DNA of 44,689 nt, from NCBI GenBank assembly GCA_008632985.1, contig QPGO01000342.1, forward strand, positions 1 through 44,689, written 5' to 3'. Source of the stretch: Psammoneis japonica. Lineage: Eukaryota. This document shows positions 1 through 42,889 of the stretch, in pieces (position 1 is the first letter of the stretch; each line of letters opens with the position of its first letter). The notes under the pieces are model-generated. The model worked only from the letters and a program-made list of their open reading frames with translations, did not search any database and was not told where the DNA came from. The position numbers and the translations under genes are program-made.

Positions 1-616
1 GCGCGGCACAATAATGCTAAATCTGTCAGCAACAACAATTGAGCCTCTATTCACTCACAATTTGCCTCTAAGGACCATTTCTTTTCTATTACCATGTATA
101 TTTCCTCAATATATTCGACTGATTCAAGTGTATCAATCGTTTATGCCTTTTAAACCGTGAAAAATGGTCCGAAGTCGACGCCATTGCGTGGGCTGAGCTA
201 CACTTCTTCTCACGTCGTCCTAAACTTATTAATCAACGTATGCTTTATTCGATCCGTTGAGTGTAACTCGTATTTGCGTATATAAACAAAATATTAATTA
301 TGCTATGTTAAAGACTTAATTTATATATATTAATTTTATTTTATATGTTTCTTGTTACATTGAGGCATATATAAATCGCTAATCGGAAAATTCGAGCTCT
401 CAACTTACGGTACAATTTAGCGACTAACAACCGAGTCCATCAACAGTTTCGAATACATGGGTACACGCACAAGACAATTCTGTATGTACCCATAACAACA
501 CATTTGTAAATTGTTATGTTTTACTATCGAAAATGGTGCCGCAAGTGTGGACCGCGCGTTTCATGCAAAAAGGGTCATTTTTTCGCGCGTGAGTGCACCC
601 AAGTCTGGAACAAGTC

Positions 617-789
617 ACGCACACAAGTCGGTGTGATCGGGCTACTGTCATCATTCTTGTGAGCCTTGTGGCTCGAAAGCAAACTACATCGCGCGTGAAC
701 GCGCGGAACTGAAGCACATGAAACTGTGCACGGCAAACCAAACAGCACGCGACACTTCGCGCGCACCTGAATCCTGTTCAAATCCTGTC
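617..789 (-). repeat. Partial third LTR copy directly abutting the 3' LTR
   Basis: caagtcggtg...gagccttgtggctcgaaagcaaac...aatcctgttcaaatcctgtc matches LTR positions ~900-1064. Left boundary approximate. Confidence 0.9.
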
Positions 790-1065
790 TGATGGAAAAT
801 GAAGGCAAATGGCAAGAATTCAAACAACAACTCCTTGCTGCTGTCCAAACAGCAGATGAGTCTCCGCTCAGAGACCGTTGCAGGAGCCGAAAGATGTGTG
901 AGTCGGTGCAATCGGGCTGCTGCTGTCATTCTTGTGAGCCTTGTGGCTCGAAAGCAAACTGCATCGCGCGTGAACGCGCGGAGCTGAAGCACACAAAACT
1001 GTGCGCGGCAAACTAAACAGCGCGCGATGCTTCGCGCGCATCCAAATCCTGCTCAAATCCTGTCA
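790..1065 (-). repeat. 3' LTR of the copia element
   Basis: Aligns without gaps to 7623-7898. On the minus strand it starts TGACAGG immediately after the PPT and ends ...CCATCA. Confidence 0.93.
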
Positions 1066-4000
1066 CTCCCCAGTTTGCTTGAGGAGCCACAGAAACAGAT
1101 TCGACTTCGGATGGAATGAAGTTCCAGAACATGAGGGGGCGGAGAAGGTCCCAGATTTGGGAGTGACCCCAATGCTTGCTGAGAATGTCAGCAGGGTTGC
1201 GGGAGCCTTCGATGAAGTGGAACTCAAGGCAACCAGAGGCAATTGCCTCACGCACACGGTGGAACGACAGTGCGGTGTGTCGCTTGTGTAACTTGGAGTG
1301 CGGGATGGTGGCACTGTCTGCAACCGACTTGTTGTCACCGAACATGCAACTGACATTGCGGATCGGGACGCCAAGGCAGCGCAGGGTGATGCGCAGGTCG
1401 ACAATCTGCTCAACACAATTCCTTGCGGCAACAAATTCAGATCCGCAGGTTGCAGTCTCCACGGTGGCTTGTTTCTTGGAGAACCAATCAGCCGGGAATT
1501 TGTTGAGGAAGTGGAGCATTCCCATGACAGAGCGTCCGGTGAGCATGCAATGGCACAAGTTTGCATCGACGCAGTGGGTGGCAGTGACGAACTTGCCAAG
1601 GGGCGGTGGAGCATCCTTCGGGATCATCTCTTCTGCTTCACCATGCACGGAATGCATCCATTCGTAGGCCGGAGCAGGGAGATCCGAATGGTCGGGCTCT
1701 TCCGTGCGAACGCGGAGAGCACCGTGTCGCATCTTGGAGAGGCACCCACAGACGCGTTTGGCACGATCCAAGTGGCCTTGACGGGGCGCAGCTCGGAAGC
1801 TAGAGAGTGACATGACGGCCGTGGCAATGTCAATTCGACCAAGGGACACTGCCCATTGGAGTGAACCAACAAGAGACTGGAACTTGTGAATGCCATCGGG
1901 TCCCAGCAGTTCGGAAGTGTCCAGTTCGGGGTGGTCACCCTTCTCTAGAGGTGACAGGGCGTTGGTGGCAGGTTTCTCCCCAAACAGTCGGGCGCAGCTG
2001 TCGACCATGCGCTCGATGCACTTGCGCAGAGACAGGCACAAGGTTCCGTCGGGGTCCCGGGAAAAGTCGCAACCCAGATGGAACTCAATGGGTCCCGCAC
2101 CCTTGAGCTTGAACTTGCACTTTTCCGTGAGAGTGTCGATGAAAGATTGAGGGTCCTTCATGGCAATGGCGAGGTCATCCACACAAACGGCAATGTGTTC
2201 ACAGTGGTCGCCGTTCCTGCGCATCCAAATGTCGGGTTTGGCGCGGCAGGGGAAGAAGCCTTCAGCTCGCAGGCAGTCGGCGAAGCGCTCGTGCCAGCGG
2301 AGACCGGAGCTGCGGAGTCCATGCAGTGCCTTGTGGATGACAAGGATGTGTCCTTCGAGTTTGCCAAATTCGGGTCCAGCTACAATGTAAAGCTTCTCCT
2401 TGGTGGTGGCTTCAAGGCAGGCATTGCCAATGTCGGTGGCCCATGTCTCCAGCTCGTTGAGTTCGGCCAGGAAAATCATCAGCCGAAGGCCACGAAGGGA
2501 GACTGCTCCGGAGCAGACACTGTCGACAGGTGCGTCCGTGAGGTGCCCGTCGGCTACGAGTCGTGCCTTGTGGCGACCGTCGTGTTTCACGTCGCACACC
2601 AGGTGGACTCGGATCTTCTTGTGTCCCGCAGGAGGAGTGGAAGACTTGAAGGGCCCGCAGTCATGGAAGACTTCGCATTCGTCGAGTTGGTCCATCTCGA
2701 GATTAGTTGCGTCTCCCCACTTGCAGTTGCCATTGCGTTCATCCAGTGACATGGCGTGTTTGCAGTTCCGGGGAACTTCGCATCTGCACTTGTAGCGAGG
2801 TGCAGTGCGGAAGGAGCGAAGCTTGGCTTGGTTGGCCATGCGAAACAGCTTCTTTTGGCGCCTCGCGATGGTGCGGAACCGCTTCCATCCATCCGTGTCG
2901 AGGAGTCCGTTCTCTCGTGCACAGATGGCACAGGTGACGGGGTCGTCCTTGGCGATGATGGCAAGAGGCTCGGACGTGATCTCCCCACTTTCCCATTCAA
3001 GCATGATGTTGTAGCTTGAGCCTTTCCAGGTTGGGTCGTGAGGCTTCAGAGGGCCTTCGTGTGACACGATGCGTCGAAATTTCCAAATGGTGGTGTCTTC
3101 GTCTTCTTGCTCAATGTGATTCATGATGTCATTGCAGGCAAGGACTTCCTCGCATTCGTCATTGTTGACAGAGCAGACGAACTCAGTGAGCTCGGGATTG
3201 CCGCTCACTTTCCATTCATGGTCTTCGACGGCCTTGACGACACGAGCTCTGTGGCGTTGTCCGTCCTCTTGTGGCTGCATGAGGAAGGTACGTCCAATGA
3301 TGTCTTGCGGATCGAAAACTGGCATCTTGGGTGTCCTGATCTCCCCATCAGGAGAATCGACGGGGTTGTCGTCATGGCAAGATTTGATGATGGGTTCAGG
3401 TGGCTCCCCATCAGGAGGATCAAGACGCAGGTTTCGAACGGCAGGATCGGGGGTGGCGGAGCGAACGTTGGACCGGTGGAGGATCTTCTGAGTCTCGTCA
3501 GATAGAATCTTGAAGGTCATCTGGTGGCCGACGTGCTCAGCAATGCCAACGAAGCGCCCATGCAACTCATGAGATTCGGACGGCCAATCGGAGTCATCGA
3601 GGTGGAAGCACACTGGTTCCCACCAGTGAAAGCGAAGCAATGGGCTGATGTCCGGGGTGGATCCAGTGAGAGTCTCGAGGGGCGTGCGCCAGTGGAGACG
3701 TGGGGACGCTGCATGGTTGAGTGTGAAGCACACGCACATGAGCGCCAGCAGCCATGTGTGGGCGGGCGAACCAAAACGGTCCATGACAGTGTTCGCCATG
3801 CACTTCACAGTCTGGTGTCGACGCTCGGCAAAGTTTTGGTGTTGCTGGTGAGGCTCACTTTGCCAGCTGGAGATGAAGAGGGCGCGTAGGATCCCGAGCA
3901 CTTTGTTGCTGATCTCAACTTGAGCACGGTCGCTAATGAGTTTGGATGGTGCACCACGTTCACGGATCTGATCCTCGAGTGTGTTGACAAACTCTTTGTC

Positions 4001-6682
4001 CGTCTCAGTGCCGCAGACGTCAGTGACGGTAGACTCGGTGCCAACAAACAGTTGGGCGCTGGTGCAACCAGAGTCGACGGCCGGGGTGTCGGCACAAACG
4101 GTGTCAGTGGCGACAGGCTCATTGCGACGGTGAACATTGAGGGCGGGGTTGGGTGATTTGAAGGCCTTGCGAAGGTGTGTGCCGGCGGGCATGCGGGCGC
4201 ACTGCGTGGTGCAGTCAAAAGTACGACGGACCGCATCGGCAGGTGGGAAGCCAAAGCAAGGCCGAAGAGACTCGAAGGGTGGGTCCTTGGGCTGTGCAGT
4301 GCGCTCCGGAGGTGGAACGTCATCGCCCTTGGGGTCAATCGCATGCAGATGACACTCGCAGAACACGTCGTCGTTCGGAATGAGGTGATCATCGAGGGCG
4401 GATGCGTGATCGGCAGACAAGGAAGCAGACAAGATGGTCTCGTTGACAACGACACGGTGACGGCAGTTGCCGCATTCGTCAAATGGGTTGGCAGTGGGAT
4501 CGTCCTGTGGGTCAGAGATCGCGTTGCACCACTGGTCATCGTCAGTGACAGAGTGATTGAGGACGGAAGGGTCCCATGTGTCATCACCGGTGAGGATGAC
4601 GTGGGGCAGGGTGTCCCATTCGGCGTCAGTGTGAGGTCGCATGGCAACATGAGGCAGGCCAGCCTTGATGTCAATGGGGATGACATGGCCATCAGGAGTG
4701 GCAATGCGTTGCAAGCCGTTGGGCACCTTGACAGAGCGATCGTTGACATCCTGTTTGTGCCATTCGAGCTGGCCGCAGGAATGGATGGTCTTGCCCTTTC
4801 CCGTGTGTGCGCACTGATGGAGGATGGCGATGACGGGACCACGCTGGGTCTCAATGATGGCACCAGCGGTGACAATGGGGATGTCCACCAATTGATGATC
4901 GTCAATGCCCTGAACGTCGACTTGGCGAGAGGTGCGTGCAATGACGCGGACGTCGTCGCCAGCAATGCCGCCGTTGGCCCCACGATCGACTAGAGCGCCA
5001 GTGCGTGTGGAGCGATGAGCAGAGGCAGAGCAAATGACATTGTGGTTGTTGACACGGCGGCAAGTGCGGCCGTCAAGTTCCATGTCATCTGCAGAAGCTG
5101 GCGGGGTAGAGGAAGCGGCGGATGGCCCCGGTCGACTGGCATTGGGGGCTTGGTTAGGAGACAACAGACGTTGCAGATCACCGGGTGGCAGTGGCTTGCG
5201 CTTGGTGAGGTGCGCCAGGATGGGATCATCCGAAATGGCGTCCACATGTGCAGCGGAGTCACCACAGTCAGCAGGAGTCGTGTTGGACAAGTTGACATCA
5301 CCGTCACTCCCAAGGTGTTGGTCGTGAAGGTTGGCCGTAACAGACTCATGGCAGTTGCTGGCTCGCGGGTTGCGGGGAGGCGGACGAGAGTGCTCAAGGA
5401 TGATCGCCTTGGAGGAATCGGGCAACGAATCCCAGAGCCGTTGGTGGTCGGGAGGGAGACGTCTCCATTGGACACCAGCAATGCTGGGACCGCGGGTGCA
5501 GGCAGCATTGGCGTGAAGGACGTCAACGTCGCTGTCAATGTCGCAGAACACATCGTCGGACGGTTCCTCGGAGCAGACGTCGTGTGCGTGTGTGGCGCAT
5601 CGGGGAGCTCGAGGTGTCGTCTTGGGTTGAAACGTGCTGTCGCACTGAGCTGCCGCGGAGAGGAGCAAGCCACAGCATTGATCGCATGTGAGGCTCTTGC
5701 CACTCTGCGTACGATGCTGATCAGCTTGGTTCTTGACAGCACGGAGTTCCTCGACAGGGTGCACGGCATTCTCGAGCATGACGCGCTTCTGTCCTTCAGA
5801 GAAGTGGTCGCTGGCGGGGATGAGTGCCTCGCACTTGCGCAACTGATCTTGCCAATGAAGGATGAACCCGTGGGTCGGACCTTTCCAAGTGCCATCACCA
5901 AGACGTGCGGTGGTGAGGTGCGTGAGCAGGGTGGAGGACTCGACAGATGCACGGGTGGAGGCAAGCGCGCATTCAGACAAGGAGCGGCAGACGGTCTGTG
6001 CATCAGAGGACCCCACATTTTCACGAATGAGAGCCTTGCCCTTGTCGGTGAGAAGGATGCGTTCGAAGACGGCGAACATGCACTTTTGCTGTTCAGCAAA
6101 GAGCAGTTTGTCTTCGGGGCTGGTCGGTTTGTACGACGAGTCTAGAATGCACTCGACGTCTTGGGCACGGGCTTGTGCCACAAGTGAGGTGTGCCAAGTG
6201 TGCCACTGCTTGTCGGATTTGAGAGCCGTGAAAGCGGTGGGATCACGCTTGATGCCTCGCTTGAAGTCTCGCACCGGGTCGCGTGCCTTGGTCGGGTTGG
6301 TGACATGTGGAGGTGCAAGGGGTGAGCTGCCGATGGACAGAGAGGACATGCAGTCCGGGCTGAGGCGGCAGGCAAGGAACTCGTCATGCGTGAACAAAGA
6401 GGAGTCGTCGGCAACGTCAAGACCTTTGTGTGCTTTGACAATGTACAGACTGACCAGTGCTGCCAACATGTTCTCACAACCACGGGGCAAAGGGATTGCA
6501 CCAGTGCCGTTGTCGCACTCAAGCGAGTCGATTTGGGGCGGCATGAACGTGAACAGTTCCTGATGTGAGTCCGTGCCGTCTTGGGCCAAAGCCAAACGAA
6601 GAGGACTCCCAGCACCTTGGGCAAGCACGGTTCCAACCACGTGCTCGAAACCATCGGTTTGTTGCTGACGAGTGAGAACCAT
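1013..6682 (-). CDS. Copia gag-pol polyprotein; ORF open but probably inactivated by Tyr->Cys/His changes
   Basis: Gag DFKRGIKRD; protease LVDRGANGG; integrase VATDT...ISDRAQVE...QNFAERR; RT KARLVADGH, DIGNACLEA, KALHGLRSSG, VCVDDL; RNase H CVDANL, TCGSEFVAA, GDNKSV, NPADILSK. First ATG at 6682 (MVLTRQQQ). Confidence 0.93.
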   Translation of the reverse strand: MVLTRQQQTDGFEHVVGTVLAQGAGSPLRLALAQDGTDSHQELFTFMPPQIDSLECDNGTGAIPLPRGCENMLAALVSLYIVKAHKGLDVADDSSLFTHDEFLACRLSPDCMSSLSIGSSPLAPPHVTNPTKARDPVRDFKRGIKRDPTAFTALKSDKQWHTWHTSLVAQARAQDVECILDSSYKPTSPEDKLLFAEQQKCMFAVFERILLTDKGKALIRENVGSSDAQTVCRSLSECALASTRASVESSTLLTHLTTARLGDGTWKGPTHGFILHWQDQLRKCEALIPASDHFSEGQKRVMLENAVHPVEELRAVKNQADQHRTQSGKSLTCDQCCGLLLSAAAQCDSTFQPKTTPRAPRCATHAHDVCSEEPSDDVFCDIDSDVDVLHANAACTRGPSIAGVQWRRLPPDHQRLWDSLPDSSKAIILEHSRPPPRNPRASNCHESVTANLHDQHLGSDGDVNLSNTTPADCGDSAAHVDAISDDPILAHLTKRKPLPPGDLQRLLSPNQAPNASRPGPSAASSTPPASADDMELDGRTCRRVNNHNVICSASAHRSTRTGALVDRGANGGIAGDDVRVIARTSRQVDVQGIDDHQLVDIPIVTAGAIIETQRGPVIAILHQCAHTGKGKTIHSCGQLEWHKQDVNDRSVKVPNGLQRIATPDGHVIPIDIKAGLPHVAMRPHTDAEWDTLPHVILTGDDTWDPSVLNHSVTDDDQWCNAISDPQDDPTANPFDECGNCRHRVVVNETILSASLSADHASALDDHLIPNDDVFCECHLHAIDPKGDDVPPPERTAQPKDPPFESLRPCFGFPPADAVRRTFDCTTQCARMPAGTHLRKAFKSPNPALNVHRRNEPVATDTVCADTPAVDSGCTSAQLFVGTESTVTDVCGTETDKEFVNTLEDQIRERGAPSKLISDRAQVEISNKVLGILRALFISSWQSEPHQQHQNFAERRHQTVKCMANTVMDRFGSPAHTWLLALMCVCFTLNHAASPRLHWRTPLETLTGSTPDISPLLRFHWWEPVCFHLDDSDWPSESHELHGRFVGIAEHVGHQMTFKILSDETQKILHRSNVRSATPDPAVRNLRLDPPDGEPPEPIIKSCHDDNPVDSPDGEIRTPKMPVFDPQDIIGRTFLMQPQEDGQRHRARVVKAVEDHEWKVSGNPELTEFVCSVNNDECEEVLACNDIMNHIEQEDEDTTIWKFRRIVSHEGPLKPHDPTWKGSSYNIMLEWESGEITSEPLAIIAKDDPVTCAICARENGLLDTDGWKRFRTIARRQKKLFRMANQAKLRSFRTAPRYKCRCEVPRNCKHAMSLDERNGNCKWGDATNLEMDQLDECEVFHDCGPFKSSTPPAGHKKIRVHLVCDVKHDGRHKARLVADGHLTDAPVDSVCSGAVSLRGLRLMIFLAELNELETWATDIGNACLEATTKEKLYIVAGPEFGKLEGHILVIHKALHGLRSSGLRWHERFADCLRAEGFFPCRAKPDIWMRRNGDHCEHIAVCVDDLAIAMKDPQSFIDTLTEKCKFKLKGAGPIEFHLGCDFSRDPDGTLCLSLRKCIERMVDSCARLFGEKPATNALSPLEKGDHPELDTSELLGPDGIHKFQSLVGSLQWAVSLGRIDIATAVMSLSSFRAAPRQGHLDRAKRVCGCLSKMRHGALRVRTEEPDHSDLPAPAYEWMHSVHGEAEEMIPKDAPPPLGKFVTATHCVDANLCHCMLTGRSVMGMLHFLNKFPADWFSKKQATVETATCGSEFVAARNCVEQIVDLRITLRCLGVPIRNVSCMFGDNKSVADSATIPHSKLHKRHTALSFHRVREAIASGCLEFHFIEGSRNPADILSKHWGHSQIWDLLRPLMFWNFIPSEVESVSVAPQANWGVTGFEQDLDAREASRAV
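1066..1072 (-). other. Polypurine tract
   Basis: Minus strand TGGGGAG immediately precedes the TG start of the 3' LTR. Confidence 0.8.
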
Positions 6683-7611
6683 GGCAGACAAAAATGGTGT
6701 CAGGACAATCAATTCTGGTTGGGAAGCGAAGGTAGACTTGAAACTTGGGTGAGAGTGGACTTGACTTGAAATGGACTTGACTTGAAATCTTGAACCATCT
6801 TAAAATCAGAAGTCGCCGGGCTTTGTCATCCCATTCGTTGTTGAGTGCTAAACTTCCCATCCGGTCCGTAGAGTTGTGCCGGCACGTCCGAACCCGCAGC
6901 CAGCGGCGCTTTGGGTTGCTTGCGAGTGGAGTGGCGGGTTGTAAACCCCTGCAGGCAAGCTGACCAGAGGTGGACAAGACCCCCGAACCGTTCTTATTTT
7001 ATGTCGGTTGGATTTCCCGATCAGGCTGGCCAGTTGACGCAGGCGTTGGGCGCTGTGGACGAACGAACAAACGCGGGAAAGCACCCTCGCCCCAACGCAG
7101 GCTGCAATCATGGCCACTTGCTCTCACAGTCGTCCTCGTGGACCTAGTAGAACTGTAGAGCACCAGTAGTCCGGGGTAGATCAGGTACAATGGACTCGGT
7201 GTGCTTGTAGAGTGGTGGCAAAACCGCAGTCCGAAGAGTGGGTACAGGTTCTTGGCCGTGAAGACATGTATATATATATATGTCTTCAGCGACGAAGATC
7301 CTTGAATATGCAGGGTTCTTGACCGTTAACCGATGAATAGGTATATAAAGGGATGAGGATCAAGGATAGACTTGGATATGACCGTTGAATGTATGTCTTC
7401 AGCGATCAAAGGTAGTATAATCAATCCAGATATCCAGCGGTAAGGAGACTTGACGGTGACGTTAACTTCCTGCCGATGCCCTGGTATTGAATGCGCGTAG
7501 ACTTGCCGATGTATGTAGAATATATACGGAGGTCCACGTAGAATTAAAAATAGCGTCGTTGGTAAATCAACGACGACGATGGCGGTTGCTCAATGGGTTG
7601 ACAATGAGCAA

Positions 7612-7622
7612 GACTGTTAATC
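7612..7622 (-). other. Candidate primer-binding site complementary to the tRNA-Asn(GTT) anticodon arm
   Basis: Minus strand GATTAACAGTC directly follows the 5' LTR. Its complement GACTGTTAATC matches a tRNA-Asn anticodon loop with flanking stem bases. Confidence 0.65.
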
Positions 7623-7898
7623 TGATAGAAAATGAAGGCAAATGGCAAGAATTCAAACAATGACTCCTTACTGCTGTCCAAACAGCAGATGAGTCTCCAC
7701 TCAGAGACCGTCACAGGAGCCGAAAGACGTGCAAGTCGGTGCAATCGGGCTGCTGTTGTCATTCTTGTGAGCCTTGTGGCTCGAAAGCAAACTGCATCAC
7801 GCGTGAACGCGCGGAACTAAAGCACACAAAACTGTGCGCGGTAAACTAAACAGCGCGCGATGCTTCGCGCGCATCCAAATCCTGTTCAAATCCTGCCA
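7623..7898 (-). repeat. 5' LTR of the copia element
   Basis: 276 bp, about 17 substitutions against 790-1065, all transitions, no indels. Confidence 0.93.
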
Positions 7899-8472
7899 CA
7901 ATTCTGTTTCCATGTCATCGGCATGCCTGTGAATGTGATGTTCTTGATTTGCTGCTCATTGAGCAAAGGTTCAGTTCCAGGCAGTTTGTCAGCGCATGAC
8001 GCGACATTTGAGTCATGCTGTCAGCATGCTCGCAAGGAGAACCACCAAAAGGTTTAGAAGAATTTTTCAAAAATTCAAACATCGTGTTGTGCGCTTGATG
8101 ATCGCAGTGTCACTGACAAAAGCGTGCGATTTCTGCGTCAAACCTGGCCATGGTCCGATCTGCTTCCGCGATGCCTGAAACCAAATTGCTCCACACGTCT
8201 TGAGCATTGTCTTCCAACACTTCTTCAAAATGGGTGAATTTTTCAGGTCCTTCATCACAATCCAAACACTTGGCACAGTTCTCAAAACGCTCTGCAGTGC
8301 AGAGCAAGCACTCGATGCCGCACTTGCAGGTGAATTGAGGGCACATTTTCTGTTTCTCAGTGCCATTGTCGCAGCTCTGTGCGAGTTTCACTTTGTCCAA
8401 ATCTCCGTGTTTGAAGGTTGGTTTGTGTGCAAAGCACGGTGCTCTCAGCGAGGCTCTCACCAAATGCGACAT
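7899..8472 (-). pseudogene. Truncated gag-like ORF of a second (probably Ty3/gypsy-type) retroelement, cut by the copia 5' LTR
   Basis: MSHLVRASL...GPEKFTHFEEVLEDNAQDVW...ADRTMARF, then after a frameshift DKLPGTEPLLNEQQIKNITFTGMPMTWKQN, ending exactly at the LTR. TA-depleted. Family assignment is from recalled similarity only. Confidence 0.55.
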
Positions 8473-8977
8473 TGCGTTTGAGGCAAAGAGCTCACAACAA
8501 AGAAAAGAGAAAGAGAGAACAAGACACAGTGTGATCACAGTGAACGGTCTTGATGAGTTGTCCACGAGTGCTTTCTAAAAATTGTGGGAAAAGCTGCGAT
8601 TGACTGCAGCCACAGTGCTCGGGTTTCTGTTGCAGAATTTCTTCGAGGTGTCAACAATCCCGGTCGAATCTCCCGAATCTTGCAGCTGCTGACGTAATTA
8701 TGATGTAGAAGTTTGCTTCACATGATGCGTGAAGCAATGCCGAAAGGTCATTTTGATGAAACAATTTCGTCAAGTTCTTCTGTGTGTCTGTCTGTGTGGG
8801 CGTGTCTGTTGGGTTATGAGTTTGTGTCAGACCACCGCACAAAGAAGTCTGGAAGTATGTACCGGCACATTATCCCGGGAATACAACCCATGTTGTATTC
8901 CGTAGTATTTCTCCGTTGAATTCTACACATTGCACTGACCGTTACCCCACTTCAGCGACCGTATCTTCCGTGTTCTT

Positions 8978-9064
8978 CAGAGGTGCATAAATCGTCTGTT
9001 GTCGTTCGCACACGCGCATTCGCACGTTGCACGCGGGCGACAACAGACGATTTATGCACCTCTG
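8978..9064. repeat. Perfect 27-bp inverted repeat with 33-bp spacer
   Basis: cagaggtgcataaatcgtctgttgtcg (8978-9004) / cgacaacagacgatttatgcacctctg (9038-9064). Confidence 0.9.
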
Positions 9065-10402
9065 GTGTTCTTGTGGAGGAAGCACGGGAATTTTTCCCGT
9101 ATCGAAACAACCGGGTTGTTGCATGGTACGTCGCGTTTTTGATAGATTTATGCAACAATACAACCGAGACCATGCCGTCTAAAAAGTATTACAAGCCAAC
9201 CTTGATAGCACTCACGTTATTTCTTGGCGGGGTGACTTGTCAATGTGAACAAGACTTCACCAACCAGAGGCCATTCAAACAACCCCCAACGATGTCGTGG
9301 TGGATGGGTCTAAAGGCGTATGGAACGCCCGAACCAGGCGACAACAGCTTGCCCATGCAAGCAAGGTCAAATTGGTTGGAACACTGGAGGAAGCCGATTT
9401 CCAGCTACATGTCAAACCGGTTGGTGCCGTGGAATGTTCTGTCAAATCAAGGCAACCCGACACGATCAACTGACGTAAAAAACCCCGTGCCATGTTTAAC
9501 ATTCATATTTAATATTCTTGTTACATGTAGTGCGTGTCTAGGGCTTCATTCTTCCTTGTTCAATCCACAACATCGCTGGAGCGCCCCTTCCAATTGAAGC
9601 ATCATTTCTGTGCGCACGGCATCCAATAAATCCATCTGCACAGAATGGAATTTTGCACAACAAAACCAAGCCTCTTGGATTCCTTGTACAATTTCCATTA
9701 ATAATGAAACAAGAATCGCGAAAATCGGCCCAAGGGATGTTGAGATATCACCGCCGCCAACTCTTTACCATAAATTCCAGTGGCAGCTCAATTTTGATTA
9801 TTCAACGATAAGTTCCGAAGAGAAAGTCAGCACCATAAAAACCCAAGCCCCGTGGACACCTTATAGCACATACGTCAAAATAATGACAAGAAGTGAGAAA
9901 CAACACCAAAGATACAATAGTATATCACAAAAATCCGTCATGTTGATGCTGCATTCTCACAATTTCTGCACTGCACCTTCAGCGACAAATCCGCCTCGAC
10001 GGATTGAACTCAACGCCAGCACCACTAGCCCATCATATTACTTGTATAAAAGCTCCGAATGCTGCGAAAAGAAACGGGAAAGTACGGCAAAAATAGATAT
10101 AGATATCAGCGACGCAAGGGAGGCCATTGTCGCGATCGTTTTCTTTTTTGGTTGTCTTCGCAGCTGCGCGTCTTGGAGGGTGCTGCGGGTTGATGTAGCG
10201 GAAGTCGGTGTCTGTGCTTTCCTGGTGACCCTGTAGAAGAAGTACTAGACCCTACGCAGTTGTACCCAGGGTTGTATTCTTTCCGTCTACCTCCACAGTA
10301 AGTCGCGGTCTCACAGCGACAGCTTTTGTTCTTTCACAACTTTTGGACAACAGCAACAAGAACGACGAACGACAACAACAGAGGGAAAAAACGTGGAAAA
10401 CA

Positions 10403-11662
10403 ATGTCTATCGATGACAGTAGTACTATAGACGACAGTTGTTTTCAAGGCGTGCAGTTGGGATTTGCAGAGCCAATTCAGGACAATGACAGAGTTTCACA
10501 CGAGAGTCCCAATTGGATGGACCATTGGGACGGCGGTCACGTCGGAGGCAAACCGTCGTGGTTGAATCCACGGGACCTTCCAAGCGTCAATTGGGCAACT
10601 TGTCCTACGTGCGACGGTCCTTTGAAATTTCTTTGTCAATTGTACGCTCCGGCTCTTCATGCCTTTCATCGGACCCTGTACGTCTTTGGGTGTCATGCGA
10701 CGATTCGAGTGTTGCGAACACAACTGCCACGAGAAAATGAGTTCTATCCCTACAGCCAGGACGACTTGTTATCGAGCGATGATTGGAAAAAGCACACGCC
10801 GTCCTACTGGAACGTTTCGCTTTGTCAAGTATGTGGACAACGCGGCAAGGGAAAATGTCCCCTGCAAGGAGTTTCGTTTTGTGGACGCAAACATCAAGTC
10901 GAACACAAGAAACACGTGTTTCAATCAACTGCAGATAATGTATTTTTGCCGTCCGTCTTTGCCAAGCACGAATTGGTTGTGGAAGAGGAACCACCGCCGT
11001 TTGAAAATGAAAAGGAACGCAAAACTCTATTTAATAATGATGATTTAGAGGATGATTTGAATCAAGAGGATTTAAACCAAATGACGGGAAGCACCGGCGT
11101 TGGAACCAAGGATCCCGTCACGTTGGAATTTTATACTCGAATCGGACGTCCCAACAATGCTCAGGAACAGTGTTTGCGGTATTGTCAGTGGCCGAATGAA
11201 AACAATAACGACGACGACGACAGCAATAATAGCAATATCGGTCCTCTTTGGATTGCGTCCCACGGTCAACCAACCACCATTCCACCCTGTCCCTATTGTG
11301 GAGCGCGTCGTAAATTTGAATTTCAACTCCAACCTCAAATGCTCTATCACTTGTTAAAGAACCACCGCAACACCAAGACAAAAGCAAACGAGGACGAGCA
11401 AAAGAAAAAGCAAGCGCTCCTGGCCACGTCTGCCATTCTCGAAAAAGCATCAGCAAACGACAACAAGAATACCTCACACTCGCAACAGGTCGCAGAGTTT
11501 CAAGAGGAATTGTTTAAAAAGCAAGAGGGAGAAATGGATTGGGGTGTCGTGGCGGTATACACTTGTACAAACAGTTGTAGTATTGTTGACTTGAAGGAGG
11601 AATTGGGTGCCTACCGTGAAGAGTATGCTTGGAGACAAGCGCCGCTGGAAGAAATGCCATAG
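10403..11662 (+). CDS. PDCD2: Programmed cell death protein 2 family (MYND-type zinc finger plus PDCD2_C; uS5 chaperone family)
   Basis: GGKPSWLNP, CPTC...QLYAP, FHRTLYVFGC, RVLRTQLP, CQVCG...FCGRKHQ, EQCLRY, IPPCPYCG...FEFQLQPQML, DWGVVAVYTC. Intact, with normal Tyr and TA content. First ATG at 10403. Confidence 0.9.
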   Translation: MSIDDSSTIDDSCFQGVQLGFAEPIQDNDRVSHESPNWMDHWDGGHVGGKPSWLNPRDLPSVNWATCPTCDGPLKFLCQLYAPALHAFHRTLYVFGCHATIRVLRTQLPRENEFYPYSQDDLLSSDDWKKHTPSYWNVSLCQVCGQRGKGKCPLQGVSFCGRKHQVEHKKHVFQSTADNVFLPSVFAKHELVVEEEPPPFENEKERKTLFNNDDLEDDLNQEDLNQMTGSTGVGTKDPVTLEFYTRIGRPNNAQEQCLRYCQWPNENNNDDDDSNNSNIGPLWIASHGQPTTIPPCPYCGARRKFEFQLQPQMLYHLLKNHRNTKTKANEDEQKKKQALLATSAILEKASANDNKNTSHSQQVAEFQEELFKKQEGEMDWGVVAVYTCTNSCSIVDLKEELGAYREEYAWRQAPLEEMP

Positions 11663-14298: not shown

Positions 14299-16302
14299 CA
14301 CCCCTGTGGTACGGCAGGGGAGAATGTGGTGATGTCATGGTTACGTGGCAGTTTATATCTCACTCATTGCATTTTTGCACAAATGTTCTTGCACTCACTC
14401 ATGCACCTGCACACAAACGCCAATGGCAGCAGGAAAAATCCTGAACCATGTTCTCCCCTAAAACTCCAACCACCAAAAACCGAGGGTGCGGAAGCGCACT
14501 TTAGCAGCACTCTTTTCTTCGCACAAAAAACACACGTTTTGATGACTCGACCATGATGGTGCCTCGTGGTTCTTCCCCGTCGCCTTCCCAGGACGCCGAC
14601 CCTGCTGACGCCGTTGCCAATGACACTGACACAACAGGCGATGTCATCATTCTGGTTCTCATGGGTGTGATGCGCACAAAACAAGATGCTGCAAACTCAC
14701 ACTGTTGTTTGCGCGCTCCGCCGCCTCCCACAGATGCTGTCACGAATTCCAAGGCCGTGCCTGCGTTTCGCCCCCCCCCTGGCATGCCCGATGCTGTCAC
14801 TCCTGCCCTTGCTGCCGCAGGTGCTGTTGATGCTGTTGTTGTCTTTTGCCAATGACATCCACAACAAAATGCTTGCAACTCACACTTCTTTCATTCTCGC
14901 CCCGCCGCCTCCCACAGACACCATCACGAACTCCAACGCCGCACCTGCGTTTCGCCCCCCTGGCATGCCCAACACTGTCAATCCTGCCATCACTGCTGCA
15001 GCCACTGTTGATGCTGTCGTTGTTTTTGCTTTGGAAGGAGCACAATGGATGGCGGATGACGGCGGACCAGGAAACCCACGCAACCACGGCCTGCTGATGG
15101 ACGACACATCAATGGACATGAGTGGCGCCTCTTGGTTGGCTCTTGAGTGCAGTCTGATCTTTGGAATGCACAGGCACATTGTGCAGCTCTCTGCAAATTA
15201 GAAACCTCCCCAACAATTGGATGGCAGGCATGCTTTCACAGTTTTTTGGTTTCAAGTTGGAGAGGTCAGCGAGCTGGCATTTTTTTGCAGGCGACTTGGC
15301 AAGGTTTCAAATGGTGCGTGTGACTTGGACACTGCTCCATTTTCCAGGACTGGGTCATCATGTGCAATTCCATGAGAGGCCACTCTCGCCATTTGAGCTC
15401 CACATGTGATGCACAACATGCTGTTTTTGCAAGTTGCTGAAATGGAGGCAGGTGGCAACGTGCTTTTGGCAAACACTCACTGTGTTCACCACTGTTTGGA
15501 CCTTCAAAACCAGTGCCTTGTCGACAGCCATGCTGCTGCTTTGCATGCCGGCACCTTCTCTGCCCATGCTCCATTGGCTGCGCCCTCCTTCACATGTTGC
15601 TGCGGCTCATCTTGACACTTGTTGTTGGCTCCGATTGGCTCCGCTGGGCTCTGGGTGAGCCTCAATCACCTCCAGACAGAGGAGGTTGTGCTTGGGAACA
15701 ATCATCCTGAGAAAGGCCATCACCACACCTCCTGTCATGGATGCTCCTCTGCCATGCCCGCTGAACCTTGACGTCGGTTTGTTGCTTTTGTTTTTTACCT
15801 GGTTTTGGAGCTGCCCCCCAGACCGTTTGAGAGACAGCTCATCAGTGCCTTCCATGGCACGACGATGTGAACGAGAGCCCAGTTTTTCCGGGGACACAAT
15901 GACAGGAGCAGACCAGCCCCAGCACTGTGCTTGTGTTTCAGGCACAGGATCCGGCAAACAGAAGCCCAAATCCTCCGGATGGCACCGGCCAATGCAGGAG
16001 GAACTGCCATGTCAGACATGGCAGGCGGGGACACGTCAGGTGGTGTGGGCGACGAAGAACAGGAGGTCGTCATGGTCGAGTCGACGAAACGCGTGATGTT
16101 TTGGTGTGTGCGCAGTCTTCCAAAAAGTGCGCTTCCGCACCCTCGGTTTTTGGTGGTTGGAGTTTTGGGGGAGCTGTGGAATGGGAATTTTTGCTTGTGG
16201 AACACACACACACATGTGGATGTTAAGATTGAAACTCAACGCACGGCCAAGCCGTGCGCGCGCAACCACGAACACACACACAGCTCCCCTGCCACAGGGG
16301 TG
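14299..16302. mobile_element. Degenerate terminal-inverted-repeat (TIR) DNA transposon, TA-depleted
   Basis: Terminal IRs cacccctgtgg(tacg)gcaggggag / ctcccctgccacaggggtg. Subterminal IR of ~100 bp (aaaactccaaccaccaaaaaccgagggtgcggaagcgcactt at ~14460 vs its reverse complement at ~16126-16167). Internal duplication ~14715-14850 / ~14900-15030. Superfamily not resolved. Confidence 0.7.
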
Positions 16303-17881
16303 CCGACCGCCCTGATGGGCAGCTATGAGACCCAGGCCTTAAGTAACTTGAAACTGGCATGGCAGGCGCGATCCGGATGAGCGTACAGACCATCACCGCT
16401 GTGACAACACGGAGAAATTGTCAAAAACCCGCCGGAGCCGACGATGACATTGACGCGGTAGATAAGGTGTCTAAACATTCGTCGTTTCTTGGACCATTAC
16501 AACAGAAGCTCTATTAGACCCTCATCGATATACCGTTGTAATCATCCATTCGGAGACACACAGTTTGGCGAGAAATATTGAAACATACCGTTTCGCTTTG
16601 TCGTGGCGCCATGTTGCATGCAGACGACGCATCAACTCACCATTTGCAAGATTTTCGGCACCCACTGAGTTAAAGTCCGAGTTAATTAAAAGGTAAGTAA
16701 GTTGAAAATCAAAATGGTGTTATCAATGTATCCGAGGCTCACCACTTGTTGTCTCACTCAACTTTCTTGCCGCCGCAGCCAATTCTCACTGTCTTTCCTA
16801 GCATGAGCACACATCGACGAATCCAACATCGTCGTCACATCGTCAAGCCCATTTGATCAATGGTATTGACCAGACAAATATTTTTGAAGAATTTGATAAT
16901 GCAACTGTAATGCATTCAGCCAAGTATTCTTGAATGGGAGAGAGTCGGGCGGATGAGAGTGAAAATGAAGAATGAAGTTGGCGTACGGTTCAAGAAAAAA
17001 GCATTCAAACATGGTTGACAAAATATTCTGATGCTGTTATTCTATAGAATGATAAATAATAGTGAATAGAGCTTCTCCCTGGCTTGTATATACTCTAGAT
17101 TGATCGCAAAGACACAAATGTCAAATATGAAAATAGAAAAGTGCGGCTTGTAAATGAGTATTCGTGGATTGCTTCACCCATTTATAGCATGAAAGAGGTC
17201 AGATATAGTTGTCACGAGGTCAAAGACAAACTAGAAAGTAGAACATTGCCATAAAATCGGTTTGTGATGAAGTTATCATCTAATCTCGGTGTCGAGAACG
17301 AGTCAATTTCACCTCATCGTACAGCGAGTCACGTGTTTTCAATCCCGTATGACCCATTCGACTCAAATTTTGGTAGAATTAGCTAGACTTTGACCCCAGC
17401 TAGAGCCACAAATTACACAAGATATGAGCATTATCAGTCTCAGACTCTTTAAACAGATGCCTTGCGAGAATGTAATAGGTATGTATTGTTCGTGGTATCT
17501 GGTATTTCAAAATAGAACTAAACTTTTCGTGGAGCACCTTCATTGCACGGGCAAGTGCGAGAGTCAACATTCAGTGATTGGTTAGTAACTAACGTTCACC
17601 CCCATTCTAGGCCCCCAAAAGTGTGCTGAACTACGTCTCTGGATACTGTTAGTCGATCGAGGTGGGTATTTGGTTAAAAACGGGGGGTTAATTTTTACAC
17701 GTGGCATCACGAAGCTACCGTAGGGCGGAAAGCAGCTGCCGCCAATCTGTCGCGCGAAGAATCGATCGCGCGATCTTCAATGACGTCATCCACTTCACAC
17801 GAGCTCTTTGACTCATACGATCAAAAGTGCGAGCTCGTGGCGCGCCATTTTTTTCTGATTTTTTGTGCACGATCGATGGAT

Positions 17882-18295
17882 GTCGACCCAAGGATTTATA
17901 AGTCTATCAGGATGTACCGTAGGGCCTACAAGCTCCAGTACAAATCCACGCGAGAGCCTGTTGCCATGCGTGCTGCGAACACCGTTAAACTTTGTACTGG
18001 ATTTTACGGAGGCCTACGTCGGGCTTCTGACGGGACGAACTTAACATTAAAAATTATTCTATTATTAATAAAATTTATTTCCAGAAATGTTCAAAAGTTC
18101 TGGCGGAAGAATGACAGACGCCATTTTTCCAGAACTTTTGCTTTTTTATACATATTAATAATTCATAATACATTTATGTGCAATAACGTCGGAGTTCGCA
18201 CCGTCAAGATTACTGTGGGACTCGTCGCCGAGCATGGCAACACACGTTCTACGTAGCTTGTACATCCTGATAGACTTATAAATCCTTGTGTCGAC
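17882..18295. mobile_element. MITE-like element of ~414 bp upstream of the FHA/Tudor gene
   Basis: 36-bp terminal IR with one mismatch (gtcgacccaaggatttataagtctatcaggatgtac / gtacatcctgatagacttataaatccttgtgtcgac), imperfect inward extension and an AT-rich core. No clear TSD. Confidence 0.65.
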
Positions 18296-18447
18296 CGACT
18301 CGCTCGCTCCACGCTCCAACCAGTACCGTAGCAACACAAACCAAAAACAGCAAGCGCAATAACAAAACAGAGCGTTGGTCCCTCCTTATTCTTAGAGGCA
18401 CCAACGCATCGATAAGGCTCTTGTGCGCACAATACAAAAGGCTGCAT

Positions 18448-21400
18448 ATGTCTCGCACCATGGCCGGTTTCAAGAAAAACAAACAAAACCGTAATTCTAC
18501 CCTCGATCGTTTCTTTCCGTCCAAAAGCACGCAGAGAAGTTCGCTTTCCGATAAGGAAAATTCGTCTAATTCTAATGGCGTTGTGACGATGCAATCTGAC
18601 AAGAAGAAACCCAAAGTCAAGGACAACGTGTCGCAGTCTCTGGAAAGCAGGACAAGTACCACGGCGGCGGCTGTACCGGCCAGCACCGCCGGTGACGACG
18701 TGCTGCCCAAGAAACGAGTATTGGGACTTTTACGAGTTTCCAGCAAAAACCCGACTCGTGAAAATCTTGTGAATAACGATGCAATTATACTCCGAGAAGG
18801 TTCCATTCTTGGTCGTGGTGACAAAGCTGCCAAGAGCAAAAAGTTGAATCTGGGAACACCCCTGGATTTTGTCGGAGTCTCCCGCAATCACTCAAAAGTC
18901 AAGGCAGTGACGCATGATTCGGTTGCATTTTCACAAGACAAGGCCGTAAATGGTGTCCGCGTTTGTCATTTTCCAAAGGAAAGAATCGTCCATGGCAAGA
19001 AAGAGATCGCAAAGGCGAAACTCAGCAAGCCAAACGGGACCATCATGGTGCATGTCGGAGAAGTGTTGGAAGTGGATGCCTGCAAAAGCACCAACCCTGA
19101 AAAACTCGGATCACCCAACCAGCTTTTCAGAACTGTCATCATGGATGACAATGGCAGCTCTGCCGTGCGTGCACCCGATGCAGCGCCCTTTTCTTCTTTG
19201 CCAGAACTGATGGAATCATCTCTGAAGTCTCAACCAGACGAGAAGCCGTCAGCTCGAGCTACCAAGCAGTCGACAGAATCTCTGTTTTCTCCAAAAGAGC
19301 AACACAAAAAGGCTCCAGAGAAGAAGAACCAAGACAAGCTCACTGGTGAGCCTACATCCGAATCAACCAAGCCAACGGCAGAGCCACCGAAACGGTCTAT
19401 GGGATCCAGAGCCCAAGAAACCAAGGATTACGGTAAGCCTACATCCGGATCGACCAAGGCGGATCGTAAGAAAACAAGATGTGGGGAGCGACAGCGATTT
19501 CGATAAAGATTCAAGTTCTCCGGAAGCAACGAAGCAAGCTCCTCGTACAAAAGTAGCAGAAGAACAAGCGTCTCCCGCAAAACAGCCAACGGCGTGCAAA
19601 CAAGAGACACTGGCTTCTCCGACGGACCTAGACTTGACGCAGTCCCTTCCGTCTCCTCCAGCTGAGGAAGCAACAGGATCACCGGTGCGAGCCACAAGCC
19701 TTTCGATGCAGTCCTTTCCCTCTCCAGAAAAGCAGGTCTCCGAAAACAAGACTATCGGTAAGGTCAAGAAGGAGCAAAAACCCTCCAAGCTGGCGGAGGA
19801 ACCTCCAAGACGGTCCAAGAGATCGCGAGACGCGAAAATCAAGGCCTTAGAGGCTCGTAAGAAACACGCCGAAGACGATAGCGACAGTGATTCCGAACCA
19901 CTCAGTTCATGGAAATCAAAGAAACGCGCTCCTCCAGATGCGAGAATCAAGGCTTTAGAGACTCGTAAGAACCAAGCTGAAGACGAGAGCGACAGTGATG
20001 CGGAACCACTCAGACCACCCAGTTATTGGAAATCGAAGAAACGCGCTCCTCAAGATGAAGATGAGAGCGACAGTGATGCCGAACCACTCAGTTTCTTGGG
20101 TATCAAAGAAACTTGCTCTTCGTAAAGAAATACCCAAAAGACGAAGTGCCGCCCACAAAAAAACCGGCGACGATGAAGCAAGAAGCCAAGAAACCAGCGG
20201 CGAAGAAACCAGCAGCCAAGGTACCCTTTCGCCCACCCCTCATTGGTGATCGTTTCCGTGTTCTTTATGAAGATATTACCGATTTGTTCGGAGTCAAGCG
20301 AAGCGACTGGTAAGAAATGCTCTGTCTTGTGTGGCTTTTTGAATTCTTGTTCTCACGTTCGCGAACACTGTGATGTCCTTGTCACTCTAGGTACTTTGGT
20401 ACAGCGCGAGAGGTGGTTTGCAAAAAGAAGAACGCAAGCTACATTATTGTCATGAAGTTCGATGACAATTTCGTATCTGAAGTAGCTTTTCCCAGCGACG
20501 ATGTGCAACGAATCCAACGGGATCCCAGCTCGGGTCTCTTTTTTGCGGACGACAAGGTGGCCTACGACGCCAATCCTACCAATTTGGAGTGCGGAGATGT
20601 TGTGGAGTGTCTGTATCAGAATGGATCCGAGGATGGAGCGCGCTTTCGAGGACGTATTGCGGCAGTTAGTGACAATGATCAGAAGCGTCTATGTGATGTT
20701 GCATATGACGATGGCGATGTGAGTTGTGTTATTGCTGATTTCTCTACTAATAGTGTATATCTTGTGACTGTATCTAACTCTACTATCTTTGCCTGCAGTA
20801 TGAACGAGACATTCCGATGGATCAAGGATACATTTATCTTGTTCGGCGTGGAGTCGACGACTTAACGTGGCTTCATAATCAACGATTCAATGAAGCATTC
20901 CGAGACCGAAAGTCGGCTGGTCGAGAGGGCAAAGTTGTCAAGTTGAGTGACGTGGACTCTCAGAAAATCCAAATCGGTTTCCCCGACGGGAAGCGAGAAG
21001 AGTGGGCGTACTCAGACGTTGCTGCTGCTATCTTTGCAGCGCATCGATACAAATGCAAAGAGGACAAAAGGGTCAAGGCGTGGCCTGCTGCGAAGAAGAA
21101 ACGCGGTTTGCCAAACGATGGACCATATGACGAGGAGCAATCGACGAAAAGGAAGCGTGTCGACAAGAACTACGCAAAGGAGATGCTAGCCCAGTTTGAG
21201 GATAAGCCAATGCAAGAATCTCAGGAACAGCAAGAGAAGGAAGAGGTGGATGCCTCTGAGGAGATTCCTATCATTCTGGGCAAGACGTTATGGAGTGCCT
21301 TGGACTCACCGGCGTTATCAAGCGCGTTGGACTCACCGGAACGCGGTTTGCCAACGATGGACCATATGACGAGGAGCAATCGACGAAAAGGAAGCGTGTC

Positions 21401-23001
21401 GACAAGAACTACGCAAAGGAGATGCTAGCCCAGTTTGAGGATAAGCCAATGCAAGAATTCAGGAACAGCAAGAGAAGGAAGAGGTGGATGCCTCTGAGGA
21501 GATTCCTATCATTCTGGGCAAGACGTTATGGAGTGCCTTGGACTCACCGGCGTTATCAAGCGCGTTGGACTCACCGGAACGCGGTTTGCCAAACGATGGA
21601 CCATATGACGAGGAGCAATCGACGAAAAGGAAGCGTGTCGACAAGAACTACGCAAAGGAGATGCTAGCCCAGTTTGAGGATAAGCCAATGCAAGAATCTC
21701 AGGAACAGCAAGAGAAGGAAGAGGTGGATGCCTCTGAGGAGATTCCTATCATTCTGGGCAAGACGTTATGGAGAGCCTTGGACTCACCGGCGTTATCGAG
21801 AGCCTTGGACTCACCGGCGTTACGGAGAGCCTTGGACTCACCGGAACCACAACGCGGTTTGCCAAACGATGGACCATATGACGAGGAGCAATCGACGAAA
21901 AGGAAGCGTGTCGACAAGAACTACGCAAAGGAGATGCTAGCCCAGTTTGAGGATAAGCCAATGCAAGAATCTCAGGAACAGCAAGAGAAGGAAGAGCTGG
22001 ATGCCTCTGAGGAGATTCCTATCATTCTGGGCAAGACGTTGTGGAGAGCCTTGGACTCACCGGAACCACATATTGGATTTGATTTATTGAAGATTCTTGT
22101 ACTACAAGGCAACGCTCCAAACGATTTGCTCGGTCGCGACTTGAAGACCATTATGATACATGGCCCAACAAGCGACGGCACTCCCTTTCCTGACCCAAAT
22201 CGGATGGAAGTGGCAGCAAACTTTGTCATCGCTGTGCTCAAGAACACGACGACATGTTTGCCACCTTCAATGTGCCCAGAATCTTGGGAAGAGATTGTCA
22301 CGTGCATTTCTCAATCATCCAAGGGAATTTATTGTGCACCGGGTGACTACTTGAAACCGGAATCTGTCAAGGCATTTCAAAGAATCGGCCCATCTCTCCA
22401 AGTCGCCAAGTACGCGGCTCAACTTCTTGAGATTCAATTGAAACGGCAACTCGATCAGTTTGTCAAGGACGAGGCTGCCACAGAAAGCAAGGCATACAGC
22501 TCACAGCCGATTGTCGAGGCGGTCTTAACATGTTCTGGAGGCATTCGCGACGCCCTCAAGACGGTCGTCCGATTGATCATAAAAGCTTGGATCCAGAATG
22601 GCCACTTTGCTCTGGCGCTTGTGAAGAATACAGGCGAATCTAGCGTTGCTCTGCAGCACTGCAACATGGAAGCCAAACGTTGCATGGATTCTCTTGGCGT
22701 CATTGCTACTTACATGACCTGGCTCTACTGTGCAGAAGAGGGAATCAGCGTCAGCTCCAAGTCGTGTGCCTTGCTCATCAAGGATGTAGTACTTTCGGAG
22801 CTACAGAACAATCCCTTTGATCCAGTACCCTTTCTTCACACTCTACGTGCGAAGCAGGGTGGTAGCCTCCTTGACACGTATCAGAAGAAGCTGAAGTTGT
22901 GGTTTGTTATGAAATTCGAACGTGATATTGCTCAACAGTTGCAGGCGAACTTGGCCAGTCACCTTGGGATCGAGCGAGAGTGGTCAATCTTGTCGCCCTG
23001 A
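18448..23001 (+). CDS. Large multi-exon protein with FHA-like N-terminus, low-complexity linker, Tudor-like domains and tandem repeats; frameshifted as assembled
   Basis: FHA-like ILGRG...GVSRNH...VNG. Tudor-like GDRFRVLY...WYFGT...KFDD and GDVVECLY...FRGRI...DVAYDDGDYE. GT-AG introns 20310-20390 and 20719-20798 restore the frame. Single-base frameshifts near 19472, 20093, 21353 and 21458. Confidence 0.7.
21101..22068 (+). repeat. Four near-identical ~240-bp coding tandem repeats with nested 27-bp ALDSPAL sub-repeats
   Basis: Units start acgcggtttgcc at 21101, 21341, 21579 and 21852 and encode RGLPNDGPYDEEQSTKRKRVDKNYAKE...LW(S/R)ALDSP. Confidence 0.95.
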
Positions 23002-28613: not shown

Positions 28614-28725
28614 TGATGTCATGGTGATGTCATGTTCACGTGATGAATTTTTGTGTGATGTCACATCATCAAATTTTGCATTTGCACACAAATGCCAACA
28701 GCAACAGGAAAAATCCTGAACCACA
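28614..28725 (+). repeat. Segment shared with the left end of the TIR element (14327-14448)
   Basis: ggtgatgtcatg...tgcacacaaa(t/c)gccaa(ca/tg)gca(a/g)caggaaaaatcctgaacca occurs in both places. Confidence 0.75.
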
Positions 28726-29725: not shown

Positions 29726-29729
29726 GGTG

Positions 29730-42781: not shown

Positions 42782-42889
42782 CATACTTCTTGTCTTTCCC
42801 TCCAAGGCTGTGTGATGTCGAAACAGATAGCGCAGCCATTGTCAGCAAACGAACAAAGCATACAACTACAAAGAACCCAACAGTTGCAT

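Follow-up and report, generated by a model that had tools for sequence, protein, structure and literature searches.

A Ty1/copia long terminal repeat (LTR) retrotransposon in the diatom Psammoneis japonica has probably been hypermutated at the DNA level, within discrete regions, by conversion of TpA to TpG or CpA, i.e., A:T>G:C on either strand; we put the probability of this interpretation at about 0.8. The element lies on the minus strand of contig QPGO01000342.1 (assembly GCA_008632985.1), which was analyzed as a window of 44,689 nt, the whole stretch of DNA considered here. All coordinates refer to the forward strand of the window.

The element carries several hallmarks of copia retrotransposons: an RVT_2 domain (E=9.5e-22) within one gag-pol frame, flanking LTRs in direct orientation that end in TG..CA, and a purine tract at the junction ctggggag|TGACAGG. 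The gag-pol open reading frame (ORF; 1013 to 6799, minus strand) encodes 1928 aa in a single open frame with no stop codon. LTR B (790 to 1065, minus strand), the 3' LTR in element orientation, begins with TGACAGG after the purine tract ctggggag, contains one TA, and is short by ~7 nt at its outer end. LTR C (7615 to 7898, minus strand) is the 5' LTR; its homology to LTR B starts at 7621-7623, and it retains TA at 7618, 7626, 7669, 7818, 7842, and 7847. A third, variant LTR (LTR A; 512 to 789, minus strand) abuts LTR B; its portion at 626-789 alone aligns with B and C (88%), and the remainder is different sequence. LTRs A and B stand head to tail at 512-1065 with a joint that lacks 1 nt and ~7 nt, and this joint resembles a 2-LTR junction, or else an insertion that is nested or has recombined. 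Scans of the window for tRNAs and Rfam families returned 0 matches, with neither a primer tRNA nor a structured RNA found. We found 863 relatives of the copia ORF; those listed (120) share 47-60% identity with the query.

Direction of change in the coding sequence

Dinucleotide odds in the ORF are 0.10 for TA, 1.43 for CA/TG, and 0.87 for CG. The predicted protein contains 0.31% tyrosine, compared with 3.83% on average (2.86-4.52%) across 59 relatives, and 3.73% cysteine, compared with 0.89% in the same relatives. Among the 120 relatives listed of the 863, tyrosine content is at least 2.86% and cysteine content at most 1.28%; none of these sequences is tyrosine-poor.

We defined a conserved tyrosine column as one with Tyr in at least 80% of the 59 relatives, which yielded 41 columns. 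In the element, Cys occupies 28 of these columns, His eight, Phe three, and Tyr two, encoded by TGC (24), TGT (4), CAC (4), CAT (4), TTC (3), and TAC (2). Other conserved residues are retained, with Phe at 29 of 30, His at 27 of 27, and Leu at 70 of 73 positions. The reverse transcriptase motif YVDD is changed to CVDD, and the family consensus YIAVYVDDLAIA appears as HIAVCVDDLAIA in the element. Because Tyr codons became TGY or CAY at 36 of the 41 conserved columns, the direction of change is A:T>G:C; both strands were affected, with TGY at 28 columns and CAY at eight.

No sense codon can become TAA, TAG, or TGA through A>G or T>C changes, and the frame of 1928 codons is therefore still open even though the element is functionally dead. 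Loss of TA also removes TAA and TAG in all frames, and many extra ORFs of 100-390 codons are thus present on both strands. The GC content of the ORF is 0.57, vs 0.48 in the window from 7899 onward. Overlapping ORFs occur at 1013-6800, e.g., 4990-6141 on the minus strand and 4994-6145 on the plus strand, and these would be false gene calls if annotated.

An initial annotation of this DNA had taken the CA/TG sites of the LTRs to derive from ancestral TA. The obvious alternative is ordinary decay of methylated CpG (CG to TG or CA), or C>T change like that of repeat-induced point mutation (RIP). A CG ancestor formally fits doublets in which one copy has CA and another TG, and some sites of CpG type do occur among the LTR differences, among the listed family variants, and in a separate block of the window (see below). 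However, CG odds in the element are 0.87-0.91 vs 0.10 for TA, the replacement of Tyr by Cys or His at 36 of 41 columns is an AT>GC change, and the residual state of the doublets in other copies fits TA. We therefore rejected CpG decay as the main process and regard it as extremely improbable. RIP was rejected as the main process because its direction is opposite, and GC-biased gene conversion was rejected as well.

Differences among the LTRs

In an ungapped comparison (788-1066 vs 7621-7899), LTRs B and C differ at 17 of 279 bases. All 17 differences are transitions, which amounts to a divergence of 6% with no transversion or indel and agrees with the spectrum reported in the initial annotation. 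The three doublets that it described, with CA in one LTR and TG in the other, were located at 828-829/7661-7662, 879-880/7712-7713, and 899-900/7732-7733; its four sites with TA in one LTR and TG or CA in the other were located at 794/7627, 837/7670, 986/7819, and 1009/7842, and LTR C is the TA-bearing copy in all four. TA sites account for 10 of the 17 differences, and NAC-type sites account for four more. Of the seven differences outside TA sites, six oppose A to G next to a 3' C on one of the strands (866 and 966, cAc/cGc; 983, aAc/aGc; and, on the complementary strand, 923 and 1052, aAc/aGc, and 1063, gAc/gGc); the seventh is at 895. With LTR A as outgroup, the differences at 923, 983, 1052, and 1063 polarize as A>G or T>C in an AAC/GAC context, and the outgroup favors G>A at site 966.

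Over 164 bases, LTR A shows 19 differences from LTR B and 20 from LTR C, in both cases transitions only. All 33 variable columns of the three-LTR comparison are transitions, compared with 127 transitions vs 98 transversions, plus indels, in other repeat pairs in the window; the LTR spectrum thus departs from that of local repeats. Given this background, the probability of 17 transitions in 17 differences is ~6e-5 and that of 33 in 33 is ~6e-9; if the transition fraction is set generously, at 0.875, the corresponding values are 0.10 and 0.012. After TA-, NAC-, and CpG-type differences are set aside, no difference between B and C remains. Dating by LTR divergence would thus overestimate the age of the element, as had been suggested.

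If the integrated element was hypermutated, the same TA sites would have been hit separately in the two LTRs, and the doublets in which CA stands opposite TG would follow. At least the hits that differ between B and C would then have fallen on LTR copies that were already separate, i.e., on integrated DNA, which indirectly supports a de novo origin of the changes in the chromosome. Together with the depleted blocks outside the copia element described below, the LTR differences argue for action on chromosomal DNA and not solely on retrotransposition intermediates.

Other copies of the family and related metagenome loci

We compared the window with Logan contigs of one coded short-read run (X1), which contains 61% of sampled window words. 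The X1 contigs match the unique flank exactly, with 0 differences in 3376 bp at a depth of 62. Summed depth over the element is 67,000-152,000, which is not a copy number but points to a very abundant family. Differing places across 17 kb, not the element alone, comprise 185 A>G, 175 T>C, 162 C>T, and 169 G>A, whereas each type of transversion occurs 9-23 times.

Doublets of TG and CA, together with residual TA, occur at the same sites among X1 contigs. Per-site states were listed for 40 of the 818 differing places, and four doublets are among them (1028/9, 1644/5, 1689/90, and 3454/5); in none of these does the depth of the first-base change exceed that of the second-base change. No CG state would be needed at any of the four, and residual TA could make up ~0.4%, 26%, 0%, and 21% of depth, respectively, if these unphased values are read as doublets. 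At seven of the 40 listed sites, the family has TA (shares 0.38-0.98) and the window copy has CA or TG; at two others, the window copy has TA and the other copies have CA. Six of the 40 rows show CG in the family (shares 0.86-0.99) and TG or CA in the window copy, so that ordinary CpG decay has also occurred.

Beyond this family, the signature was identified in two of 79 related metagenome loci, L023 (2766 bp) and L027 (2759 bp). L023 is saturated, with TA odds of 0.02, and its 37 Tyr columns include 14 with His, eight with Cys, and one with Tyr. L027 has TA odds of 0.31 and is about half converted, with Cys at 15, His at nine, and Tyr at 15 of 43 Tyr columns. The control loci L002 and L028 each retained 37 Tyr.

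A sequencing or assembly artifact, such as systematic miscalls at modified bases, would be conceivable in that the sequence is present in only one sample and study, maybe the source of the assembly itself. However, the Logan contigs of X1 show the same TG/CA alternatives, the two metagenome loci are independent contigs with the same replacement of Tyr by Cys or His, and the borders of the depleted blocks are sharp and related to elements. We consider an artifact hardly credible.

Sequence motif

Codons at conserved Tyr columns point to an effect of the base 3' of the TA. In the window copy, the ratio of TGC to CAC (TAC-type codons) is 24:4, and that of TGT to CAT (TAT-type codons) is 4:4; the corresponding ratios are 14:3 and 1:6 in L027, and 6:5 and 2:9 in L023. 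Pooled over the three elements, TAC-type codons yield 44:12 and TAT-type codons 7:19 (Fisher p=1.6e-5). In L027, the A of TAC was hit in 14 of 21 codons, vs one of 18 for the A of TAT (p=1.6e-4). We also compared the strands for a bias that would point to transcription coupling; the excess of Cys over His in the window copy (28:8) is explained by this preference for a 3' C, given the even ratio in TAT-type codons (4:4), and raw counts of CA and TG are confounded by coding.

These counts, together with the four polarized NAC sites of the LTRs, support a preferred site of 5'-TAC-3', followed by TA before other bases, and NAC would form a weak secondary class. The order of preference proposed in the initial annotation, TA first and then AC, is borne out by the TAC-to-TGC bias and by the four NAC sites. 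We also considered a resistance of TACG, as suggested by 10 of the 34 surviving TA in the block that holds the element body; this was dropped, since 10 of the 24 TGC products precede G.

TA-depleted blocks in the window

A two-state Viterbi segmentation of the window by TA content identified discrete, sharply bordered blocks with TA odds of 0.05-0.11, vs 0.55-1.03 in neighboring DNA; CA and TG odds in the depleted blocks are 1.36-1.87. The first block (526 to 7144) comprises the element body with LTRs A and B and contains 34 TA in 6619 bp (TA odds 0.11, CG odds 0.91). The second (7670 to 8694; TA odds 0.07) extends past LTR C into another sequence, at 7899-8694, which is moderately repeated and has a summed depth of 900-2400. 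The third (14357 to 16323; TA odds 0.05) contains a repeat bounded by terminal inverted repeats of 50 bp (14453-14502 and 16124-16173), whose sole mismatch is TA vs CA. Three of the affected sequences, namely the copia element, the repeat bounded by inverted repeats, and the repeat at 7899-8694, are mobile or repeated DNA.

Two further blocks are located at 28333 to 31476 (TA odds 0.05, CG odds 0.28, CA and TG odds 1.7-1.9) and at 37666 to 38474 (TA odds 0.07). The low CG odds of the former are what CpG decay would produce, and this block may be an older target that bears both kinds of decay. Weaker blocks at 18789-19352 (two TA, odds 0.06) and from 44212 to the end of the window (TA odds 0.16) are uncertain calls. 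The former sits in a long Lys/Ser-rich ORF (18274-19506) without a Pfam match, which could be either a host gene that was hit or a natural composition. A Pfam search of ORFs in the other TA-poor blocks and their neighbors gave nothing significant; there was a weak match to DUF4634 at E=0.1.

Adjoining the element is a PDCD2/TSR4 host gene (10229-11662) whose best named relatives are from diatoms; Cylindrotheca, Nitzschia, Pseudo-nitzschia, and Fistulifera align with 43-48% identity, and centric diatoms align with lower identity. By this similarity, the genome is very likely that of a diatom. A tandem array with a period of ~240 bp (21100-22063; copies 91-99% alike, with indels) runs across the ORFs at 20778-21428 and 21445-23001. 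An 848-bp direct repeat (31612-32458 and 43751-44594) has 97.9% identity, with nine transitions and four transversions, and is located near two fragments of amino-acid-transporter (Aa_trans) genes at 39475-40158 and 42199-42939. The repeat and the gene fragments together suggest a local segmental duplication.

The spared leader

Between the first two blocks is a TA-normal island of 525 bp (7145 to 7669, minus strand) with 42 TA (odds 1.03), which takes in ~54 bp at the end of the 5' LTR as well as the primer-binding region and the leader. The neighboring stretch at 6801-7000 also retains six TA. The corresponding end of LTR B does carry mutations, so protection of the leader is positional and not based on its sequence.

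On the sense strand, the island is bordered by ca|GTAAGg and ctacTAG|, and it could be a leader intron of 528 nt; such an intron, if real, would imply targeting that depends on transcripts. Alternatively, the island may be a later conversion tract from an unmutated copy, or it may have been protected by bound factors. A later insertion of 6900-7602, as indicated by one contig joint, was considered and dropped, because long leaders are present in related elements as well, whose ORF matches begin 255-1768 bp from the start of full contigs, and because further contigs span 6997-7617 with 97-98% identity.

Observations against the interpretation and alternative explanations

The following observations weigh against hypermutation of the integrated element by an adenine-directed activity. 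Neither LTR pairing tried gave a shared k-mer of at least 5 bp between the flanks, i.e., no target-site duplication (TSD) was found, as the initial annotation had stated. Given the lack of a TSD, the truncation of LTR B, and its fusion with a third LTR, a single integration event for B and C is not verifiable. At doubly hit TA sites in the 164 bp common to LTR A, B and C agree in seven of seven cases, and A is discordant in five of seven; by our own estimate from the observed direction frequencies, such agreement between B and C would have p~0.03 if the hits were independent. Some of the mutation load was probably inherited or homogenized and may predate the present copy. The claim that the mutations arose after insertion is therefore borne out for part of the load only. 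Three of the 17 B/C differences (866, 895, and 966) are CG vs TG/CA and possibly reflect ordinary CpG decay; the earlier description of an A/G class with a 3' C fits six of the seven remaining differences in form, but 866 and 966 (CAC/CGC) may belong to CpG decay.

X1 is possibly the sample behind the assembly of the window and hence does not count as independent support. The stretches at 1-525, 8695-10206, and 16324-17000 have normal TA despite a summed depth (a rough proxy for copy number) of ~2300-4300, vs ~60 for unique sequence, so that repetition alone is no predictor of hypermutation. The leader island is untouched, with many of its 42 TA in a TAC context, and no simple model accounts for this. 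According to PMC10354150, amphioxus ADAT2, the one ADAT2 with measured DNA activity, prefers GAA and TCG and not TAC.

Editing during retrotransposition would account for several of these observations. In this alternative, genomic RNA or cDNA would be edited, edited copies would be mobilized in trans, and LTR differences would arise by recombination between copies. The lack of a TSD, the three-LTR structure, and the concordance of B and C with the discordance of A are in keeping with such a history, as are the very high summed depth of a family whose copies are in differing mutation states and the unmutated leader with its cis-acting signals. However, both strands were hit (TGY and CAY), one cDNA would give identical LTRs, and the repeat bounded by inverted repeats and the non-copia neighbor are equally depleted. 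The leader was spared although it is part of the genomic RNA, and selection alone would have to keep ~42 separate TA sites in it. In the comparable case of the rhizarian alga Bigelowiella natans, the changes described in the preprint text arise in situ (Mettrop et al., bioRxiv 10.64898/2026.01.13.699255). Overall, we regard editing during retrotransposition as unlikely.

The attacked base could also be thymine, if the T of (G)TA, once enzymatically modified or oxidized, paired with G and thus gave T>C. TAC>TGC reads as GTA>GCA on the complementary strand, and the two are indistinguishable by sequence, which is a further point against our assignment of the activity to adenine. The T-A-C context, however, matches the U33-A34-C35 loop that is read by TadA, which naturally acts on U-A-C of the anticodon loop. 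In the text of the preprint, the authors of the B. natans study favor deamination of adenine (bioRxiv 10.64898/2026.01.13.699255). Thymine-directed chemistry is, in our assessment, quite improbable.

Proposed mechanism and implications

If DNA-level hypermutation of TpA is correct, adenine would most likely be deaminated to hypoxanthine, which is read as G; the enzyme would be TadA/ADAT-like or another polynucleotide adenine deaminase, a chemistry that we infer. The likeness between the observed motif and the UAC substrate of TadA is an analogy. Replacement of Tyr by Cys or His, including YVDD>CVDD, would destroy the protein while the frame is kept open.

A broader and much more tentative proposal, which we consider doubtful at present, is that these changes reflect a natural defense by DNA adenine base editing at 5'-TAC-3' in diatoms and widely in the SAR group (stramenopiles, alveolates, and Rhizaria), including environmental relatives. 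Such a defense would target mobile elements via their transcripts (guidance by R-loops or mature RNA) and not via copy number. Transcript-guided targeting would explain the sparing of the 525-bp leader island, with its intron-like GTAAG...TAG ends, and of some repeated non-coding DNA.

For genome annotation, a hypermutated element retains long ORFs on more than one strand and in several frames and would be annotated as an intact gene, elements look older because LTR-divergence dates are inflated, and local GC content goes up. If DNA-level hypermutation of TpA is correct, the "reverse RIP" of one rhizarian alga also works in diatoms, which are major and genetically tractable phytoplankton, and in uncultured relatives; this would point to a widespread eukaryotic genome defense by A:T>G:C editing of DNA, and to an enzyme that naturally edits adenine in DNA at a defined motif.

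Comparison with known systems

The signature resembles RIP in that blocks of mobile DNA carry transitions of one dinucleotide class and are inactivated in place. RIP, which requires RID and DIM-2 and is tied to the sexual cycle, changes CpA to TpA, raises AT content, and makes stop codons, whereas here the change is opposite, with no stop in 1928 codons and a GC content of 0.57. RIP also targets all sufficiently long repeats, whereas here the repeated stretches at 1-525, 8695-10206, and 16324-17000 and the leader keep normal TA. Work on APOBEC-type enzymes has reportedly established deaminase-style, context-dependent hypermutation of retroelements that is fossilized in genomes. APOBEC changes are C>U on minus-strand cDNA (G>A), strand-specific, and made before integration; here, AT>GC changes affect both strands and sequences other than retroelements.

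Adenosine deaminases of the ADAR and TadA types, including ADAT2-3 and adenine base editors derived from TadA, convert A to I (read as G) with a preference for a 5' U or T, a likeness to the pattern described here. ADARs act on double-stranded RNA and are metazoan, and RNA hyperediting by ADAR affects the sense strand only and would reach DNA through reverse transcription; here, TGY at 28 columns is accompanied by CAY at eight, the repeat bounded by inverted repeats was also hit, and the LTRs differ. Natural TadA and ADAT act on tRNA. Our literature searches and term look-ups in papers on diatom transposable elements returned no report of a TpA signature in diatoms.

The closest counterpart is B. 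natans, in which mutation-accumulation lines acquired de novo TpA>TpG/CpA changes in integrated DNA of giant viruses and virophages (Mettrop et al., bioRxiv 10.64898/2026.01.13.699255). As given in the text of that preprint, two regions of integrated viral DNA had 231 mutations, of which 230 were A>G or T>C, with TpA as the site throughout, and the genome contains 124 TpA-poor clusters that are rich in CpA and TpG; TpA-poor genes show an enrichment of reverse transcriptase and DDE domains, and an adenine deaminase is proposed, with ADAT2 as a candidate (bioRxiv 10.64898/2026.01.13.699255). A term search of the preprint text did not find "LTR," "retrotransposon," "tyrosine," or "trinucleotide."

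The two systems, as far as the preprint text describes that of B. natans, are alike in near-exclusive A>G or T>C change on TpA, yielding TpG or CpA, in discrete regions of mobile or foreign DNA, and the evidence supports hypermutation of the B. natans type, here on an LTR retrotransposon of a diatom. The rhizarian B. natans has viral targets and offers an experimental time course, whereas here the target is a high-copy element, near saturation and known from sequence. Relative to the description in the preprint text, what is new in P. japonica is the defined TAC motif with its preference for a 3' C, the weak NAC class (four sites), the protein-level read-out of Tyr replaced by Cys or His, and the spared leader.

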